Source: an uncultured bacterium
GTDB taxonomy: Bacteria; Armatimonadota; JACIXR01
NCBI GenBank assembly: GCA_938041455.1
Contig: CALITO010000003.1
Location: 98,548 to 162,547, forward strand
Reading direction: 5' to 3'
DNA length: 64,000 nucleotides
Part shown: positions 5,956 through 31,885 of the stretch, one piece after another
Layout: each line of letters opens with the position of its first letter
How positions within the stretch are numbered: position 1 is the first letter of the stretch
Notes under the pieces: generated by a model
Databases searched by the model: none
The model's input: only the letters and a program-made list of their open reading frames with translations
What the model was told of the DNA's origin: nothing
Position numbers and translations under genes: made by a program

Positions 5956-7047
5956 ATGTCCGTAGCGATGATAGGTATAAGCAAAGGAAGAGGAGAGTTA
6001 AAGGGAGAGGAGCGTTATATTAGGGCTATCGAGGAGGCAGGTGGTAAAGCTGTTATCCTTCCCCCCGGCAAGGGAGAGATAATACACAAATTAAATGGTT
6101 TGCTTTTGCCAGGGGGAGGAGATGTAAAGCCTTGTTTTTATGGGGAGGTTGAGCAAGGAAGCGAATCCATAGATGAGGAGAGGGATAAATGGGAGATAGA
6201 ACTTGCCCGCAGTTTCTTTAAGGAAGGAAAATCTATATTGGGAATATGCAGAGGGGCGCAGGTGTTGAACGTTTCCCTCGGGGGAACCCTCCATCAAGAT
6301 ATTAAAGGGCATAGGGAAGGGAGGCATTTGATCAAGATAGAAGAAGAGAGCTTGCTCTCTGATATCCTTGAGGGGATAAAGGAGATAGAGGTTGATTCCT
6401 CTCATCATCAAGCGGTAAAGGAAGTTGCTCCTTCTCTAAAGGAGGATGCCCGGAGCGGGGATGGCATTATAGAAGGGATAGAAGGAGAGGGTTTTATCCT
6501 CGGCGTTCAGTTCCATCCAGAAAGGATATATAAAGAGCAACCCATTATTTTCAATATATTTAAAAAATTCGTTCGAGCCTCTAAACGGGAGATATATACC
6601 TTAGGAACAAGCACGAGAAATTGGGAAGAGTTCATAGAAATCTTGAAGGCTTATGATGTGGAAGAAGTAGTGGATGTTAGAAGATTTCCTCTGAGCCGGT
6701 TGGAATGGTTCAGGAAGGAGGAACTTGAGAAGAGGTTGAGGGGAGAGGGGTTATTTTATATATGGATGGGCGAAGGATTGGGAGGCTATCGCTCACCTAG
6801 TTACCAAGCATACACTCGGACAGAGGAGTTCGGAGAAAGTTTGAAAAAATTATCTCAGCGAGCTTTGAGAAAGAGAGTGGTGATAATCTGTGCTGAGGCT
6901 TTACCCTGGCGATGCCATAGACGCTTCATAGCAAGTGCTATGGAGGAGAGGGGCTGGAAAGTTACCCATATAATAAGCAAAGGGAAAGAATGGTGCCCCA
7001 CTGAAAGGGTCCATCCCGAGGACGACCTCTTTTCGGAGGATGTTTAA
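5956..7047 (+). CDS. class I glutamine amidotransferase-like (peptidase C26 / gamma-glutamyl hydrolase-like) domain fused to a DUF488 domain
   Basis: The N-terminus carries the GICRGAQ nucleophile-elbow Cys and GVQFHPE His, matching the C26/GATase1 fold. The C-terminus carries IYTLGTS...VVDVRRFP...CAEALPWRCHRRFIA, typical of DUF488 (YeaO-like). Confidence 0.7.
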   Translation: MSVAMIGISKGRGELKGEERYIRAIEEAGGKAVILPPGKGEIIHKLNGLLLPGGGDVKPCFYGEVEQGSESIDEERDKWEIELARSFFKEGKSILGICRGAQVLNVSLGGTLHQDIKGHREGRHLIKIEEESLLSDILEGIKEIEVDSSHHQAVKEVAPSLKEDARSGDGIIEGIEGEGFILGVQFHPERIYKEQPIIFNIFKKFVRASKREIYTLGTSTRNWEEFIEILKAYDVEEVVDVRRFPLSRLEWFRKEELEKRLRGEGLFYIWMGEGLGGYRSPSYQAYTRTEEFGESLKKLSQRALRKRVVIICAEALPWRCHRRFIASAMEERGWKVTHIISKGKEWCPTERVHPEDDLFSEDV

Positions 7048-7056
7048 TGACTGAAA

Positions 7057-7980
7057 TTAACGGGGTGGGGAATAACCTTCCAAGGGTGCGAAGGCATCCA
7101 CCCAAGGTTGGAGCAGACGGCGCTTATCCTCCGGAAGGCGGAAGTAAGCCCTTACTCCTGCCGAAATTATAGGTTCAGCGAAGCTCGCTACTTGGGATTG
7201 CCTCTCAGGTGGTAGGGAGAGGAAGGCATTAACAGCGTTGGATAAGAAGACGGCGACATTCTGTATGATCCCGTCTCTTTGCTCAGGTGGTAGGGAAAAA
7301 AGACGGTCGAACAAGTTGCTCATCAGGTTCACTCGTTCCTCAGGTGACAACTGAAGAAATCTTTGATAGTTCTCCATAAATCGCTGGGGACCACTGGCTG
7401 GGGAAACTTCTTCTCCCTCTCCGCCAAATACTTGGGAGAAGTCATCCAGGTTTAAGGAAATGGTGGGCTTTGTTATGATATAAACTTTCTCCCAGTATAC
7501 CCCAGCGGAAGAACAGAGCCTGTCTATGATCCTTTCTATTCTTTGGTTTTTAAAACTGAGAGCATTCGTTGTGCCCTTTACATTAGGGTTCACCAGTATC
7601 CTAATTTTGCTCTCTTTTTCCAGTGCCTGTAAAGCATCGCTCAAAGGCGTTCCCTTATCAAAACTTATGGATACCAGGGGACCACCTAAGACCCGGGGCT
7701 TTTTAGTTTTTTGAGTAGAAACGAGGTAGCCCTCCTCCCACCTTGCAGAAACCTGGCTGGTGAGAGCATTCAAAACCTCCGATAAAGCCGCTTTATTAGC
7801 TTCGAGAGAAACCCTCTTCTCTATCGGTGATAGGACCAGTATTTTTACTCCCGCCTTTTCCTCTATCATTTTCACAGCGGAGTGGAAAGGCTCATCGATC
7901 ACCTTGAAGGTCAACAATGGGGAAGCGGCCAAACAAAGTCCTGTGATGCTAATGGTTACTAAAAGCAAATATCTTCTCAT
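7057..7980 (-). CDS. secreted protein with two STN-like (secretin/TonB N-terminal) domains
   Basis: Has a signal peptide and an AAGGAGGTG site 8 nt upstream of ATG 7980. The ISFDKGTPLSDALQALEKESKIRILVNP motif resembles an STN domain. Confidence 0.5.
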   Translation of the reverse strand: MRRYLLLVTISITGLCLAASPLLTFKVIDEPFHSAVKMIEEKAGVKILVLSPIEKRVSLEANKAALSEVLNALTSQVSARWEEGYLVSTQKTKKPRVLGGPLVSISFDKGTPLSDALQALEKESKIRILVNPNVKGTTNALSFKNQRIERIIDRLCSSAGVYWEKVYIITKPTISLNLDDFSQVFGGEGEEVSPASGPQRFMENYQRFLQLSPEERVNLMSNLFDRLFSLPPEQRDGIIQNVAVFLSNAVNAFLSLPPERQSQVASFAEPIISAGVRAYFRLPEDKRRLLQPWVDAFAPLEGYSPPR

Positions 7981-8019: not shown

Positions 8020-10221
8020 CTATATAGTCTTGTGAAACTTCCTAAAAGAGGAGAGGAAGCATAATAAGGTAAGGGATAGAAGGGAGATATAGAATCCCAG
8101 TTTGAAGGCGAAAGGGCGGAAGAGGAAGAGAAGACGGTGTTTCCCCGCTGGCACAGGGACGCTTCTAAAGATGTAATATGGAATTATCGCTTTCTCTTCT
8201 CCGTCCAGAAATGCTCGCCAGCCAGGGTAATAGGTATCGGTGAATAAAAAATAGCCTTCCTTTTCCCCCTCGATCTCAAACTCCACCCTATTTGGTGAGT
8301 AAGCCAGAAGCTTGGAGCTTCCTTGGGCCTGGAAAAATTGGTCAACAAAACTGAACCTTAAAGGGTTTCCCAAATAGAGATAAAGCTTTGTTTCCCCATC
8401 CCTGAGCAGTTTCAGATGGGAGGCATCTATATAGAAAGGAGAAAGGACGAACTTCACCCCCAAAATATCAAGGTTTTCCTTTCTCACAGAATTCGGCAAA
8501 AGCATATTACCGTTCTCTAACGGGGCGGTATTCTTACCTTCAAGGTTATCCAAAAAACTCTTGTAGGGAAGCAAAAAAAGGCTGTCATAGCCTCCTACAT
8601 TAAAAAGTTGATACACCATAGAAGTATTGGGGGGAAAACATGCGAGAGGATATCTATAAAGAGACCAGCGAGGAGTTATCGCCAATAACCTATAAAAACT
8701 TCCTTTGAGTTGCTCTACAAAAGGAAGGGGAGGGAAGAGCTTTTCAGGGGGGGAGAAATAGAGATGGCTGGAAGCAGTGGGGAAAAGGTCAAGAAGGAGA
8801 AGGGGGAGAAGGAGATAGGGAAGGAGTTTTTTTCGGAAAACGATGAATAGATAAAGGAAGAGAGGCAGGAGGAATAGTTTGAGGAAATCCATATAAGGGA
8901 AGGTGGGGGATACATCTCTTAAGATGGTGAATGGTTCCTCTCTTGGGGCTAAGGAGAAGAGGAGGAAGGGGAAAAGTATTATTGGGAAGAAGGTGGAGTG
9001 GAGGAAGCGGCGGGAAAAGGGTGTGCGGAGCAGGGTATCGAAACCTATTCCTGCTCCCGCAGATAGGCAAAGGACAAAGACGCTGATAAGACGAGCGGGG
9101 GAACCAGTTTGGCTCCAAGCAGGGAAAAGGAAATAAAAAGGGATGTTCAAGGGAGTGCCGAGTAAAAGAAGAAAGGAAAGCAGGGAGATGATTAGGAGGG
9201 GAAAGGCAAATTTCCTTTCCCCTCGCAAGGTGAAAGGCAGACAAAAAAGAGGTAAGATACCGAGATAGAGTGCGTATTCTATATATTCTCCCCTGCCCCA
9301 GTAGTTTCCCTTTGCGGGATTGCCGAAGAAGTTAGGCAGGAACAACCCTATAAGCCGTTCCAGTGGCAAAGAGAGGGAGATATAAGCGTTGTAGGATTGC
9401 CAACTGGTGCTTTCGGCTCTATGAGCAAAGCGGAAAAACTCAAACAAAGGGAGAAGGGCGAGGGAGGACAAAAGGAGCCCCATACCAGCTCCGAAAAGTG
9501 GGACAAAAGAACTGCCCAAGTAAACCCTCTTTTCCCAAGGGAGACGAAGCAGGAGGTAGATTATCAGTAGCCAAAGTGTATAAAGGAGGAATTGAGGGTG
9601 TCCCCCAAGGGCACTTAAACTGAGGGAGATTGCGCAGGTAAGGAAGGAATGCCAAAGTTTTTTCTCCAAAGCAAGTTCTACCCCGATTAGCGCGAGGGGA
9701 GCCCAAACGAAGGAGTTAGCCACGGTGGGTAAGGGTAGCCAAGCAGTGACGAAACTGCTGAGCATATAAGCGAGGGAGGCGAAAAGCGAGGCGTAGGCAG
9801 AAACCTTTATTTTTCTAAGGAAAAGATAAAGCAGAAAGCCAGCCAAGAACAAGTGGAAGAAAGAGTTGAAACCGAGAAACCTCTTTCCCAGAAGCGCGGT
9901 TAACCAATTAAATGGGTAGAAGATAGCGGATTGTCCGTTGGCGTAAAAGGGGGTGCCACAAAACTGATAAGGGTTCCAGAGGGGTAAGAACCCCCCTCGC
10001 AGGCTCTCGGCGAGAAAATTGCGCCAGGGATAAAACTGAGCGATGCTATCCCAAAGGAGAGGGTTCCATTGTATACCTTCCCGAGGGGAGCCAATCTCTG
10101 CCCACGGTTGAAAATGGAAAAGCATATCCGCGGGAGAGAAAATGTAGCCCAGAAAAACTCTCACCATCAAAAAGAACGCTACGAGAAGTAATAGAAGAGG
10201 GGGAAAAAGTTTTTTTAGCAT
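8020..10221 (-). CDS. YfhO-family polytopic membrane protein (putative glycosyltransferase)
   Basis: Multi-TM N-terminus with WxxYxFxGxPF-type motifs and a large C-terminal periplasmic domain. The start is placed at the internal Met (MLKKLF, 10221) because the further 48 nt of the ORF-track frame overlap the intergenic repeat. Confidence 0.65.
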   Translation of the reverse strand: MLKKLFPPLLLLLVAFFLMVRVFLGYIFSPADMLFHFQPWAEIGSPREGIQWNPLLWDSIAQFYPWRNFLAESLRGGFLPLWNPYQFCGTPFYANGQSAIFYPFNWLTALLGKRFLGFNSFFHLFLAGFLLYLFLRKIKVSAYASLFASLAYMLSSFVTAWLPLPTVANSFVWAPLALIGVELALEKKLWHSFLTCAISLSLSALGGHPQFLLYTLWLLIIYLLLRLPWEKRVYLGSSFVPLFGAGMGLLLSSLALLPLFEFFRFAHRAESTSWQSYNAYISLSLPLERLIGLFLPNFFGNPAKGNYWGRGEYIEYALYLGILPLFCLPFTLRGERKFAFPLLIISLLSFLLLLGTPLNIPFYFLFPAWSQTGSPARLISVFVLCLSAGAGIGFDTLLRTPFSRRFLHSTFFPIILFPFLLFSLAPREEPFTILRDVSPTFPYMDFLKLFLLPLFLYLFIVFRKKLLPYLLLPLLLLDLFPTASSHLYFSPPEKLFPPLPFVEQLKGSFYRLLAITPRWSLYRYPLACFPPNTSMVYQLFNVGGYDSLFLLPYKSFLDNLEGKNTAPLENGNMLLPNSVRKENLDILGVKFVLSPFYIDASHLKLLRDGETKLYLYLGNPLRFSFVDQFFQAQGSSKLLAYSPNRVEFEIEGEKEGYFLFTDTYYPGWRAFLDGEEKAIIPYYIFRSVPVPAGKHRLLFLFRPFAFKLGFYISLLSLTLLCFLSSFRKFHKTI

Positions 10222-10225
10222 ATTC

Positions 10226-10460
10226 AAAATTTTGGGTTTTGTTGAATAAAGGGAAAAGGAAAACAACATTCTCCTCCTCAGCGGTTTCCTCCCTTTCCTT
10301 TGGAATAAATAGCTTTACGAAAAGCGAAAAGAAACCATCTTTTATTAGCCATTTAACTTGAGAATCTCCTTCTAAAAATTTCTAAATGCTATATTTCTAC
10401 AAACTTCGTCATCCCTTCAAGGTGGAAGTTGAACGTTCTTTGAATTATTCAACAAAACTA
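10226..10460. repeat. intergenic repeat, copy 1 (about 85% identical to 31601..31840, same orientation)
   Basis: Direct read-off alignment with copy 2. Shared blocks include GGAAAC...GTTTCC (a 5-6 bp hairpin), TTATTAGCCATTTAACTTGA(G/C)A and AACGTTCTTTGAATTATTCAAC. Confidence 0.8.
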
Positions 10461-10472
10461 ACTTTGAAAAGA

Positions 10473-10838
10473 TCAACTGCGGGAGACGAATATCACTCCC
10501 CAACAGATAAGAAATACTCCCAGGACGCGGTATATATTCAGTGTGTCTTGAAATATGAGCCGGGATAAGATGGCGATGAAGGCGAAATTGAGACTTATAA
10601 AGGGGTATACGAAGGAAAGTTGAGCCTGGGAAATTGCCAAAATCCAAAATAAACTTGATACCGCATAGGCGAATAAGCCGAGTAGAACCCAAGGATTGAA
10701 AAAAGCACGGAGGAACTGCAAGTTAAACCCCGCTAATTTACCTTCTTGGTTTACTCCCCATTTCAAACTTACTTGCCCCGCTACGCCCAAAAAGAGGGCG
10801 AGGGATAAAGATAACCAGAAAGGAATTCCTTTGCTCAT
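10473..10838 (-). CDS. small 4-TM DMT/SMR-like membrane protein (ArnE/EamA-like)
   Basis: 121 aa with four predicted hydrophobic helices, adjacent to the YfhO-like glycosyltransferase. Confidence 0.45.
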   Translation of the reverse strand: MSKGIPFWLSLSLALFLGVAGQVSLKWGVNQEGKLAGFNLQFLRAFFNPWVLLGLFAYAVSSLFWILAISQAQLSFVYPFISLNFAFIAILSRLIFQDTLNIYRVLGVFLICWGVIFVSRS

Positions 10839-10855: not shown

Positions 10856-11338
10856 TTAATAGAAACTCCTCATTCTCTTTAGAGGCCAGATAATAGCCAC
10901 TGCTACGCCCTTCACTAATTCTTTCTTTACTGGTCCATAATCGGATGAATCCTCGCTTTGGTTCCTATTATCGCCCAGCACAAAAATGTAGCCAGGGGGA
11001 ACATAAACAGGTGGCAAGACATAAATTGGGGGTTCTTTAATGTATGGTTCGTATAATGGCTGGCCATCGACGATTACAACGCCTCTATAAACAGCTACCC
11101 AATTTCCACCCTTTGCTATAACCCTTTTTATGACGGTTTCGCCCTTATATCTTGGATCGGGATCGTTCATCACTACTATCTCGCCTATCCTTATTTCACT
11201 ATTTGGCCCAACTCGTTGAACAAGTAGCCTATCGCCTGGCAAGAGGGTAGGCTCCATAGAGCCTAAAGTAACCACCGCGGTAAAGAATACATATTTCCTT
11301 ATCAAAAGCCCTCCCATAACCCCTATAACCACCGCCAC
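10856..11338 (-). CDS. lepB: signal peptidase I (S26)
   Basis: Carries the SMEPTL box (catalytic Ser), GDRLLV, VIAKGG and GDNRNQSxDS boxes. Confidence 0.8.
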   Translation of the reverse strand: MAVVIGVMGGLLIRKYVFFTAVVTLGSMEPTLLPGDRLLVQRVGPNSEIRIGEIVVMNDPDPRYKGETVIKRVIAKGGNWVAVYRGVVIVDGQPLYEPYIKEPPIYVLPPVYVPPGYIFVLGDNRNQSEDSSDYGPVKKELVKGVAVAIIWPLKRMRSFY

Positions 11339-11433: not shown

Positions 11434-12294
11434 TTATCTCAACCCTTGGGAATAAGCCATTGCCCGCAGTCTCTCTATCCTTTCCTCAATGGGAGGATGA
11501 GTGGAAAAGAGGCGGGCGAGGAACTCCCCTCCTCTCAGGGGATTCACGATGAAAAGATGGGCTGTGTTTTCATAGGCCGGTAAGGGCAGGGAACGGGATG
11601 CGAGTTGCAGTTTCTGAAGGGCGCTGGCAAGATAGAGGGGATTACCCGCTATATTAGCTCCTCCCTCATCGGCTGCGTATTCTCGAGAACGAGATATTGC
11701 CATCTGTATCATTACGGCGGCAAGGGGAGCAAGTATAGCAAGAAGGATCAAACCAACCATTTGAAAGATGTTTCCCTCTCGGTCGCTGCTACCCATTGGT
11801 GCGAAGAAGAAAATTAAACGGGCGAGGAACATAATAGCCCCCGCCAAAGTAGCCGCTATCACAGCGATGAGGGTATCTCTATGCTTTATATGGGAGATCT
11901 CGTGAGCCAAAACCCCTTTCAATTCCTGGGGAGTAAGAATTTTGAGGATGCCTGCGGTTACCGCTATGGCGGCGTGCTGGGGATCCCGCCCAGTAGCGAA
12001 AGCATTGGGTGAATGGTGAGGTATGATATACACCCTTGGGATAGGAATACCAGCATTGGCGGAGAGTTCCTCTACCATTGGATAAAGAAATTGTCCCTCC
12101 GCGTCCGAAGGGGAAACCTCTTGCGCTCCATACATAGATAGAACTATCTTATCCGAGTAGTAATAGGCGAGGAAATTCATCATCCCAGCGAAAACGAGGG
12201 ATGCAAACATCCCCTCCCTACCCCAGAAGCTCCCTATGCCCAGGAAAAGTAAGGTGAGAAAAAGCATTAACAGAAATGTCTTCATAGTATTCAT
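11434..12294 (-). CDS. htpX: zinc metalloprotease HtpX (M48)
   Basis: Has an [10 protein letters not shown] HExxH motif and 4 TM segments. Start ATG 12294 is preceded by AAAGGAGGTG, whereas the longer ORF-track start has no ribosome-binding site. Confidence 0.85.
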
Positions 12295-12404
12295 AACGAC
12301 ACCTCCTTTAAAAATTATACAAAGGCCAAGAAATCTTGGCAACTCTATGTATAATTCCCAAGGGGATAGATTGCCCCCTTGACTAATTATGCAACAATAC
12401 CTCT

Positions 12405-26943: not shown

Positions 26944-26983
26944 TATATCGCAAAAAATTGCCCTCCTGTGAGCCACAGGAGGG
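26944..26983 (-). terminator. rho-independent terminator / possible attenuator hairpin between miaA and carA
   Basis: On the minus strand, the 10-bp stem CCCTCCTGTG-GCT-CACAGGAGGG is followed by CAATTTTTTG. The T-tract ends about 13 nt before the carA ATG. Confidence 0.5.
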
Positions 26984-27080
26984 CAATCTAAACTTCTTAA
27001 ACCCTTCCTAGCCTCACAGGACTAGATTTAAAGGGCTTCTTCAATTGTTAATTAAATTTTACTCCAAATAGAATATAAAG

Positions 27081-29935: not shown

Positions 29936-31501
29936 CTACTTTTCTCCCTTCAGGATTCCGTATTCTATTGACTCCACGAGCGCCTGCCAAGAAGCTTCAA
30001 TTATATTGGTTGAAACACCTATAGTGGACCACACATCCTCGCCGTCGAAAGACTCCACGAGAACTCTTACTTTTGCTGCTGTCCCCTCTGCTCCGCTTAT
30101 CACCCTCACTTTAAAGTCGGTTAGGCGAATTTTTTCCAACTCGGGATAGAACTGAAGAAGTGCCTTGCGCAGGGCATTGTCAAGGGCGTGGACTGGCCCA
30201 TCCCCCTCAGCCACAGTATGAGTAACCTTTCCATTCACGCTCAGCTTGAGAGTAGCTTCGGTGACGAATCCTTCGTCCTCGCTTCTTTTCTCAACTATTA
30301 CTCTCAATCCAAGGAGGTCAAAAAGTTTCCTATATCCACCAGTTATCTTCTTAACCAAAAGTTCAAAGGAAGCCTCCGCTCCCTCAAAATGATAGCCCTC
30401 CTTTTCCAGTTCCACCAGTTTATCAAGTATTAAGCGGGTCTCTCGTGAATCCTTTGTGAGGTCTATGTCAAGCCTACGGGTTTTATAAACGATTGTAGAA
30501 GCTCCTGATAGTTCAGAGACGAGGATTCTTCTTTCATTTCCCACCGCCTCCGGATTTATATGTTCATAAGAGTGGGGGTTCTTCATTATCGCGTCAACAT
30601 GGATACCTCCTTTATGTGCGAATGCTGACCTTCCAACGAAGGGCATATTGCTGGCAGGCACGATGTTGGAAACCTCGGCAACGAAGTGAGATAACTCAAC
30701 GAGGTTCTTCAATTTCTCTTCCGGAATTACTTCAATTCCCATCTTCAACACAAGGATGGGAATAACCGAGCAGAGATTAGCGTTTCCACAGCGCTCACCA
30801 TAACCGTTTATAGTGCCCTGGATATGGACTGCCCCCGCTTGCACCGCAGCGATGGTATTGGCCACGCCAGTCTCGGAATCGTTGTGGGCATGAATACCAA
30901 TTGGCGCTTTTATTTTGTCCCTAACCTTGCCGGTAATCTCCCCCACCTCGTTGGGAAGACAGCCGCCGTTCGTGTCAGCGAGGCAAATTATATCCGCTCC
31001 CGCTGACTCAGCTGCTAACAAACATTCCATAGCATAAGTGGGGTCAGACTTATAACCATCAAAGAAATGCTCTGCGTCGAAGATTACCTCCCTGTTGAAG
31101 GATTTAAGGAAGCGGATTGAATCCTCTATCATCTTCAAATTTTCCTCAAGCGAGACACGGAGGACCTCCTTCACATGGAAATCCCACGATTTACCGAAGA
31201 TGGTGACCACGGGGGTATCCATTTGAATGAGCATAACGAGATTGGTGTCATCTTCTGGCTTCCTATTTGCTCTCCTTGTTGAGCCGAAGGCGGCAAGCTT
31301 GGCTTTTTGAAGGGGTTCCTCCGCCATCTTCTTGAAGAAGGCAAGGTCCTTAGGGTTTGAAGCAGGCCACCCTCCTTCAATGTAGTGGATCCCGAACCAA
31401 TCTAATTTACGGGCAATGCGGATTTTATCCTCTAAGGAGAAGGATATGCCCTCCATCTGTGCGCCGTCTCTTAAAGTGGTATCATATAGAGTAATCGTCA
31501 T
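29936..31501 (-). CDS. cimA: (R)-citramalate synthase / 2-isopropylmalate synthase family protein
   Basis: N-terminal TLYDTTLRDGAQMEGISF and IEGGWPASNPKD signatures, as in CimA-type enzymes. The HxH metal site (IHAHND) and a C-terminal LeuA-dimer regulatory domain are present. Confidence 0.8.
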   Translation of the reverse strand: MTITLYDTTLRDGAQMEGISFSLEDKIRIARKLDWFGIHYIEGGWPASNPKDLAFFKKMAEEPLQKAKLAAFGSTRRANRKPEDDTNLVMLIQMDTPVVTIFGKSWDFHVKEVLRVSLEENLKMIEDSIRFLKSFNREVIFDAEHFFDGYKSDPTYAMECLLAAESAGADIICLADTNGGCLPNEVGEITGKVRDKIKAPIGIHAHNDSETGVANTIAAVQAGAVHIQGTINGYGERCGNANLCSVIPILVLKMGIEVIPEEKLKNLVELSHFVAEVSNIVPASNMPFVGRSAFAHKGGIHVDAIMKNPHSYEHINPEAVGNERRILVSELSGASTIVYKTRRLDIDLTKDSRETRLILDKLVELEKEGYHFEGAEASFELLVKKITGGYRKLFDLLGLRVIVEKRSEDEGFVTEATLKLSVNGKVTHTVAEGDGPVHALDNALRKALLQFYPELEKIRLTDFKVRVISGAEGTAAKVRVLVESFDGEDVWSTIGVSTNIIEASWQALVESIEYGILKGEK

Positions 31502-31600
31502 TTACACTACCTCCTACAAAAGAAATTTTAACACCACACCCTATATTTAGCAAGCGAACATAAAAGCAACAGGCACCCACCTTTTTCCATTATTTAAACA

Positions 31601-31840
31601 AAAAATCCCAAAATTGGTTTTGTTGAAAAAAGAAAAAAGGAAACGCATTCTCTTCCTTAGCGGTTTCCTCCCTTTACTTGGGAATAAATGGCTTTACAAA
31701 AACGAAGAGAAACCCTGTTTATTAGCCATTTAACTTGACAATCTTCTCCTAAAAATTTCTAAATGCTACATTTCTATAAACTTCATCATTCCCCCAAGGG
31801 GGAAAGTGAACGTTCTTTGAATTATTCAACGAAACTTAAA
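31601..31840. repeat. intergenic repeat, copy 2 (about 85% identical to 10226..10460)
   Basis: Read-off alignment. Sits between the cimA start (31501, minus strand) and the promoter of the 31919 gene. Confidence 0.8.
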
Positions 31841-31856
31841 AATTAAATTTTCCCAC

Positions 31857-31885
31857 TTGACGCACCCCCTCTTTTGTGCTACTAT
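31857..31885 (+). promoter_or_regulatory. candidate promoter for the prepilin/DUF1559 gene
   Basis: TTGACG, a 17-nt spacer, then TGcTACTAT (extended -10). An AGGAGG site lies 7 nt before TTG 31919. Confidence 0.4.

Follow-up and report, generated by a model that had tools for sequence, protein, structure and literature searches.

Two intergenic segments in the window, the whole 64-kb stretch of DNA that was analysed, are very probably old copies of one non-autonomous IS903-type MITE, moved in trans by a DDE transposase whose gene lies elsewhere. The original prediction offered three readings for this pair, namely a shared cis-regulatory leader, a small RNA gene and a MITE-like element, of which the MITE-like element stands and the other two fall away. 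The MITE reading is carried by terminal inverted repeats (TIRs), tips of the IS903 type, an empty site in relatives, short flanking direct repeats and related elements elsewhere. Weighing against it are a count of two copies, a conserved 20-mer that GTDB representative genomes lack, flanking repeats that fall short of the clean 9-bp duplication of IS903-type transposition, AG at one tip of each copy, the lack of a cognate transposase in the loci examined and of a full copy in 179 kb of relatives' DNA, and a copy 2 site with no clean empty counterpart. What the analysis shows directly is a repeat with inverted termini of IS903-like sequence, an insertion that is polymorphic between genomes at the copy 1 site, and no signature of an RNA or of coding.

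In the proposed mechanism, the element would be a non-coding, non-autonomous, AT-rich MITE of about 225 bp whose ends mimic those of an insertion sequence from the IS903 group of the IS5 family. A transposase whose gene lies outside the window, at another place in the genome, would bind tips of the GGTTTTGTTGAATAA type and cut out or copy the element, leading to its insertion into AT-rich intergenic DNA with duplication of a few target bases. From the sequence, we infer that an IS903-like DDE transposase mobilised the element in trans, and how long the original target duplication was.

The repeat pair and its inverted ends

The segments 10225-10459 and 31609-31836 are 85.5% identical over 235 bp in the same orientation, with E values of about 1e-69 to 1e-71, as determined by MAFFT, BLASTN and a two-sequence profile. 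These methods bear out the same-orientation repeat of about 85% that had been read at 10226-10460 and 31601-31840. When the whole 64-kb window is compared with itself by BLASTN, the pair is the sole repeat at E<1e-5, and a sensitive two-sequence profile search of the window reveals no third copy, even a degenerate one. The conserved block named in the original prediction is equally specific: the 20-mer TTATTAGCCATTTAACTTGA occurs exactly twice in the window, against an expectation of 0.01. The predicted GGAAAC...GTTTCC hairpin is exact in copy 2, while copy 1 reads GGAAAAC...GGTTTCC. Both units are poor in GC (34% in copy 1 and 34.5% in copy 2, compared with 46.8% for the window).

The most telling feature, absent from the original prediction, is the pair of terminal inverted repeats GTTTTGTTGAATAA/TTATTCAACAAAAC. 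With the unit limits set where the copies cease to resemble each other (10235-10460 and 31616-31838), the anatomy of the two units is as follows, the 18-bp terminal inverted repeat of IS903 (IS903 IR) serving as the reference for the tips.

10235-10460, plus strand: copy 1 of the putative MITE, about 225 bp, 34% GC, right boundary uncertain by 1-2 nt; flanked by the YfhO ATG (10221) and the EamA-like stop codon (10473-10475, minus strand)
10235-10252, plus strand: left TIR of copy 1, GGTTTTGTTGAATAAAGG, 15/18 to the IS903 IR, with a perfect 14-bp arm at 10236-10249
10442-10459, minus strand: right TIR of copy 1, AGTTTTGTTGAATAATTC on the minus strand, 15/18 to the IS903 IR, with a perfect 14-bp arm at 10445-10458; the tip is AG, not GG
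10229-10234: left flanking direct repeat of copy 1, ATTTTG, 5/6 against its partner, 5/9 if read as a 9-bp duplication
10461-10466: right flanking direct repeat of copy 1, ACTTTG
31616-31838, plus strand: copy 2 of the putative MITE, about 221-223 bp, 34.5% GC; in the spacer between the divergent cimA (minus strand) and DUF1559/N-methyl pseudopilin-like (plus strand) genes
31616-31633, plus strand: left TIR of copy 2, GGTTTTGTTGAAAAAAGA, 14/18 to the IS903 IR
31819-31836, minus strand: right TIR of copy 2, AGTTTCGTTGAATAATTC on the minus strand, 14/18 to the IS903 IR
31610-31615: left flanking direct repeat of copy 2, AAAATT, 6/6 against its partner, 6/9 if read as a 9-bp duplication
31839-31844: right flanking direct repeat of copy 2, AAAATT

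The arms of copy 1, GTTTTGTTGAATAA (10236-10249) and TTATTCAACAAAAC (10445-10458), are complementary at 14 of 14 positions, and those of copy 2 (31617-31630 and 31822-31835) at 12 of 14, so that both copies display the inverted termini typical of MITEs. Their small size, another MITE trait (roughly 50-600 bp), is likewise seen: the units measure 221-226 bp and have no coding capacity. The right tips of both copies read AG, not GG. The flanking repeats are short and imperfect, lie 1-3 nt off the right TIR and agree at 6/9 (copy 2) and 5/9 (copy 1) positions when taken as 9-bp repeats. By sampling AT-rich window positions, the probability of such repeats arising by chance is estimated at about 0.02 for copy 2, with a boundary slack of ±2 nt, and about 0.016 for copy 1, with its boundaries fixed. 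Because the copies have diverged by 14%, their target duplications have decayed and AG stands in place of a GG tip, the insertions are probably old and the copies probably immobile by now.

The most conserved stretch of the element comprises 24 identical bases (window 10435-10457 and 31812-31834). Two small palindromes, GAACGTTC and TTGAATTATTCAA, lie within it beside the right tip and are plausible candidates for transposase or host-factor binding sites.

Homology between the copies ends abruptly at the unit edges and does not enter the coding flanks, as seen in both the alignment and the self-BLAST. A local duplication including coding flanks, which the original prediction had raised against itself, therefore does not apply. 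Simple segmental duplication or gene conversion of intergenic DNA, devoid of mobility, would fit the number of copies seen (two) and their distance of 21 kb on the same contig. It is nonetheless very improbable, since inverted repeats form the edges and resemble a known transposase-binding end at 4/4 tips, the flanking sequence is not co-duplicated, and other repeats, in a relative (contig L054) and in an unrelated MAG (CAYIEX01), have these tips too.

Kinship of the tips and related elements elsewhere

IS903B, a member of the IS5 family, has GGCTTTGTTGAATAAATC as both its IRL and its IRR and generates a 9-bp direct repeat (PMC10569121); the IR sequence and the 9-bp repeat were re-checked on the copy in plasmid Rts1. 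Compared with this 18-bp IR, the four tips of the window score 15, 15, 14 and 14 of 18 and are the only 18-mers on either strand of the window to reach at least 14/18; beyond these four, the window holds no further TIR-like site. The IS903 IR GGCTTTGTTGAATAAATC and the copy 1 tips GGTTTTGTTGAATAAAGG and AGTTTTGTTGAATAATTC are thus nearly the same. The differences from IS903B lie in the body and the host: the element carries no transposase gene, measures 225 bp rather than 1057 bp, has one tip with AG instead of GG, is flanked by 6-bp repeats (5-6/9 as 9 bp), and has as its host an uncultured bacterium far removed from Enterobacterales. Neither the interior nor the subterminal regions show significant homology to IS903B, as expected for a MITE derived from a distant IS903-like parent. 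A cognate or IS903-type DDE transposase is found neither in the window nor in the relatives' and other loci examined.

A scan for TIR pairs, in which both termini were specified and the interior was left free, covered 185,579 species genomes and returned 8 hits. Among them is a 223-bp MITE in a Methanosarcinales MAG, CAYIEX01, present in two copies (L065 199-423 and L070 3400-3624) that are 99.1% identical and oppositely oriented. It bears the same 14-bp tips, GGTTTTGTTGAA[T/A]A, and is flanked by perfect 9-bp target duplications (AAAGAGGTT; ATCATAAAT), which identifies these tips as genuine transposon ends. The 9-bp duplication is exactly that of IS903. The genes around it are of archaeal type (DUF460, archaeal Lon, SET), and no transposase lies nearby. 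This MITE resembles the window element in its identical 14-bp tips, its 223-bp length and its intergenic position, but its interior is unrelated, as nhmmer and BLAST match the tips only. Its copies, 99% identical and with perfect duplications, are recent, whereas the window copies are 14% diverged and have decayed flanks. The hosts also belong to different domains of life. An IS lineage spanning both domains could underlie the IS903-like tips that MITEs of an uncultured bacterium and of a Methanosarcinales archaeon have in common.

The other hits of the scan are of a different nature. L063, L064 and L068 are chance matches, and L066/L067 represent one orthologous Lutibacter locus. L069 2828-3062, at the end of a Paracoccaceae MAG contig, is a long perfect palindrome with arms of at least 40 bp; it is unrelated to the element and most likely an assembly artefact.

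Parentage by the IS6/IS26 family was considered as well and was downgraded in favour of IS903, which fits better in both sequence and duplication length. The IS6/IS26 TIR consensus is GGTTCTGTTGCAAA with an 8-bp duplication, and two IS6-family MITEs, of 227 and 336 bp, are listed in ISfinder (PMC6807381, PMC7986276). The resemblance consists of a GGnnnTG start with G1, G2, G7 and G10, a 14-bp TIR, left tips matching GGTTCTGTTGCAAA at 11-12/14, and an element size near that of the 227-bp MITE. The right tips, however, match at only 9-10/14 and lack G1, and the overall 9-12/14 is weaker than the 13/14 obtained with IS903 over the same positions. The duplications differ too: 8 bp in IS6/IS26 against 9 bp in the related archaeal MITE, with the window flanks agreeing at 6/8 at best. 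Elsewhere in the window, the spacer sequence GGTATTGTTGCATA (12388-12401, minus strand), which lies 5' of the M48 peptidase gene, agrees with the IS6/IS26 TIR consensus at 11/14 positions, G1, G2, G7 and G10 among them. Such matches occur in the window in numbers compatible with chance, and no partner repeat is seen.

Further copies of the element itself were sought in several collections. The exact 20-mer TTATTAGCCATTTAACTTGA gives 0 hits in GTDB representative genomes, plasmid and phage BLAST searches with the element yield no match, a viral contig scan with the TIR pattern gives 0 hits, and 179 kb of relatives' DNA contains no full copy. A 17-mer finds 53 loci in JGI metagenomes, all of them chance hits, none extending past the 17-mer. 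The CimA relatives at 84-91% identity come from MAGs and metagenome contigs; the closest named ones, Dictyoglomaceae and Armatimonadota MAGs, reach 65-68%.

The nearest relative found is L054 (CimA 91%), a complete contig of 14,822 bp. It begins with ...TTATTCAACAAAACTA and ends with TAGTTTTGTTGAATAAATAG..., and both ends stop inside repeat copies (L054 1-26 and 14771-14822). The tips at these ends, AGTTTTGTTGAATAAATC and ..AAATA, agree with the IS903 IR at 16 and 15 of 18 positions, and over 16 bp they do not differ from the right end of copy 1. Since assemblers break at multi-copy repeats, an element with these IS903-like ends is very likely present several times in the L054 genome. The interior of the L054 end repeat differs from the window MITE, and this repeat is possibly an autonomous IS.

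The two insertion sites and their flanking genes

Copy 1 lies between the EamA-like and YfhO-like genes of an M48-S26-EamA-YfhO-FecR_C operon, which comprises:

11434-12342, minus strand: M48 peptidase
10856-11338, minus strand: S26 signal peptidase
10473-10838, minus strand: small EamA-like protein
8020-10221, minus strand: YfhO-like protein
7057-7980, minus strand: FecR_C-like protein

Three relatives (L061, L062 and L071), whose YfhO is 74-75% identical, have the identical operon order, and their EamA C-terminus (...VIFVSRS*) and YfhO N-terminus align with those of the window. The spacer from the EamA stop to the YfhO start measures 17, 20 and 25 bp in these relatives, compared with 251 bp in the window. 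Subtraction of the element and one direct repeat reduces the window spacer to 19 bp. The copy 1 site is thus a filled site facing empty ones, with the presence/absence polymorphism characteristic of MITEs, and the element is an insertion specific to the lineage of the window. A more distant relative (YfhO 67%; L072-L074) has a 105-bp spacer, also without the element. The insertion splits a tight EamA-YfhO junction, and copy 1 is necessarily co-transcribed on the minus strand. Fold prediction indicates that its ends are able to form a 14-bp stem in the operon transcript.

Both copies lie 5' of a minus-strand start, in agreement with the original prediction: copy 1 lies 13 nt before the in-frame YfhO ATG at 10221 and copy 2 lies 114 nt before the cimA ATG at 31501. 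At the YfhO gene, the element carries a putative initiation signal of its own, with a strong ribosome-binding site:

10266-10279, minus strand: Shine-Dalgarno sequence GAGGAGGAGA within the element, ahead of an ATG (10269) and a TTG (10266) that share the frame of the native YfhO ATG (10221)

The element ATG lies 48 nt upstream of the native one. Two starts, at 10269 and 10266, fall inside the element, namely those of the longest YfhO ORF and of the source annotation (P0124, 748 aa, MFSFSLY...). The YfhO N-termini of the relatives align with the ATG at 10221. The annotated start is likely either a mis-call, that is, an annotation artefact, or a MITE-derived N-terminal extension, and the YfhO-like gene is flagged accordingly.

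Small non-coding intergenic units bounded by TIRs, such as Correia/NEMIS, ERIC, RUP and BOX, are transcribed within operon mRNAs and can donate promoters, hairpins and start signals. The window element resembles them as a small TIR-bounded non-coding unit between genes; those families, however, reach hundreds of copies per genome, compared with the two seen in the 64-kb window, and no sequence kinship with them is expected.

A variant of the MITE reading holds that copy 1 has been co-opted, so that YfhO would now owe its ribosome-binding site and start codon to the element, and the operon mRNA possibly a processing or stability hairpin. The predicted anti-SD duplex is consistent with such a role, at -11.5 kcal/mol for the in-frame GAGGAGGAGA-ATG of the element versus +0.4 kcal/mol for the ATG at 10221, which has no Shine-Dalgarno sequence (the starts of the relatives range from -3.3 to -10.2). 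The source annotation P0124, which begins YfhO within the element, and the 14-bp TIR stem expected in the operon transcript point in the same direction. This co-option is nevertheless unlikely, as the case is drawn purely from sequence, the reconstructed pre-insertion spacer likewise has no Shine-Dalgarno sequence, the N-termini of the relatives' YfhO match the 10221 start, the 16 added residues have no homolog, and the equivalent motif of copy 2 is weaker and leads nowhere. The specific form in which copy 1, located 13 nt upstream of the YfhO start, would have replaced the translation-initiation region of the gene (adding 15-16 residues), with the TIR hairpin acting as a processing or stability element, is slightly more doubtful.

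Under the preferred reading of both segments as MITE copies, copy 2 occupies a spacer between divergent genes:

29936-31501, minus strand: cimA/leuA-like gene, flanking copy 2
31525-31553, minus strand: cimA core promoter TTGCTA-17-TAAAAT, outside the element, between copy 2 and cimA; conserved in relatives
31857-31885, plus strand: promoter-like TTGACG-17-TACTAT of the DUF1559 gene, outside copy 2; its counterpart is conserved in L054
31919-32638, plus strand: DUF1559/N-methyl pseudopilin-like gene, flanking copy 2

The cimA core promoter and a Shine-Dalgarno sequence just upstream of the ATG are common to all relatives. Copy 2 begins 62 bp further upstream than this promoter and hence does not form part of the cimA leader; its place, with a divergent promoter on either side, is a harmless one. 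In all seven cimA loci from relatives (L054-L060), the orthologous site lacks the element.

In the syntenic L054, the copy 2 site is occupied by an unrelated spacer of about 1 kb that contains no ORF of transposase size, and it does not present a clean empty site. Homology from the DUF1559 side enters the element end by about 20 bp (GTTGTTGAATGATTTAAA vs TTTCGTTGAATAATTCAAA; 0/500 shuffles), and the cimA-proximal end shows no significant similarity in L054 (62/500 shuffles). The L054 segment orthologous to the DUF1559-proximal end of copy 2 (6790-6812) reads GTTGTTGAATGATTTAAAAAG, a decayed TIR-like motif. This one-sided motif is a possible relic of an old or ancestral insertion.

The contigs of four relatives end 90-420 bp upstream of cimA (L055 1-234, L056 1-86, L058 1-99 and L059 1-417). 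Upstream of cimA, L058 and L059 contain a repeated, partly palindromic motif, TTAGTCCACAAAGC (AGTCCACAAAGCTGCTTTGTGGA), which suggests a different repeat family at this position in those genomes.

Coding and RNA readings of the unit

The unit has no signature of a small peptide. Indels of 1-2 nt between the copies disrupt all frames except one shared stretch of 25 codons, which has no ribosome-binding site and carries about 6 non-synonymous versus 2 synonymous changes. From the indels and this substitution pattern, the small-peptide reading is rejected.

At the RNA level, Rfam 15 gives no match to the unit at the gathering score, and the best permissive hits reach 10-20 bits against thresholds of 41-176. 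Neither copy contains a consensus promoter inside the unit, and the one weak terminator-like hairpin occurs in copy 1 only and is not conserved in copy 2. Compared with shuffles, the single-sequence folds give z values of -1.4 (plus strand) and -2.7 (minus strand) for copy 1, and of -3.75 (plus) and -0.5 (minus) for copy 2, so that the favoured folding strand is the minus strand in copy 1 and the plus strand in copy 2. The outer helix of every fold is the terminal inverted repeat. Co-variation of the hairpin arms, proposed originally as a check, does not appear: compensatory pairs number 0/50 on the plus strand and 0/62 on the minus strand of the two-copy consensus folds, counts that carry little power with only two sequences.

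The negative RNA results, combined with orthologous sites that lack the element, leave neither a leader nor a small RNA with positive support. A shared leader, in which a riboswitch or attenuator-like 5' UTR would act on both cimA and the YfhO-like gene, would agree with the location of the two copies, equally oriented and each 5' of a minus-strand start, with the capacity of GGTTTCC to pair with an upstream GGAAAC or a downstream GAAACC, and with a copy 1 minus-strand fold somewhat stabler than shuffles. It is extremely unlikely: the conserved cimA core promoter TTGCTA-17-TAAAAT places copy 2 outside that leader, the element is missing upstream of cimA (L054-L060) and of YfhO (L061, L062, L071-L074), that is, at the orthologous sites of all relatives examined, neither an Rfam match nor a compensatory pair exists, and the minus strand, favoured in copy 1 (z -2.7), is not favoured in copy 2 (z -0.5).

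A small RNA gene in two paralogous copies is just as hard to credit. Its size of about 225 nt and a helix closing the molecule from both ends resemble some small RNAs, and the plus-strand fold of copy 2 reaches a z of -3.75. The closing helix, however, is the transposon TIR with its IS903-like sequence, and the unit lacks a promoter-terminator pair, with neither signal present inside both copies. No Rfam family, no covariation on either strand and no ortholog in relatives is found, and copy 1 lies inside an operon on the strand opposite to the best-folding strand of copy 2.

The conserved non-coding repeat is thus explained as a mobile-element relic, for which annotation as a regulatory RNA is unwarranted, and an IS903-type MITE family is recorded in a poorly sampled uncultured lineage. 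Repeats of this kind break metagenome assemblies, as at both ends of L054, and are usable as strain markers.

The sole Rfam hit in the window lies apart from either copy. It is a PyrR-binding site (RF00515) at 26952-27038 on the minus strand, scoring 66.4 bits against a gathering threshold of 54, and presumably forms the leader of a pyrimidine biosynthesis operon.
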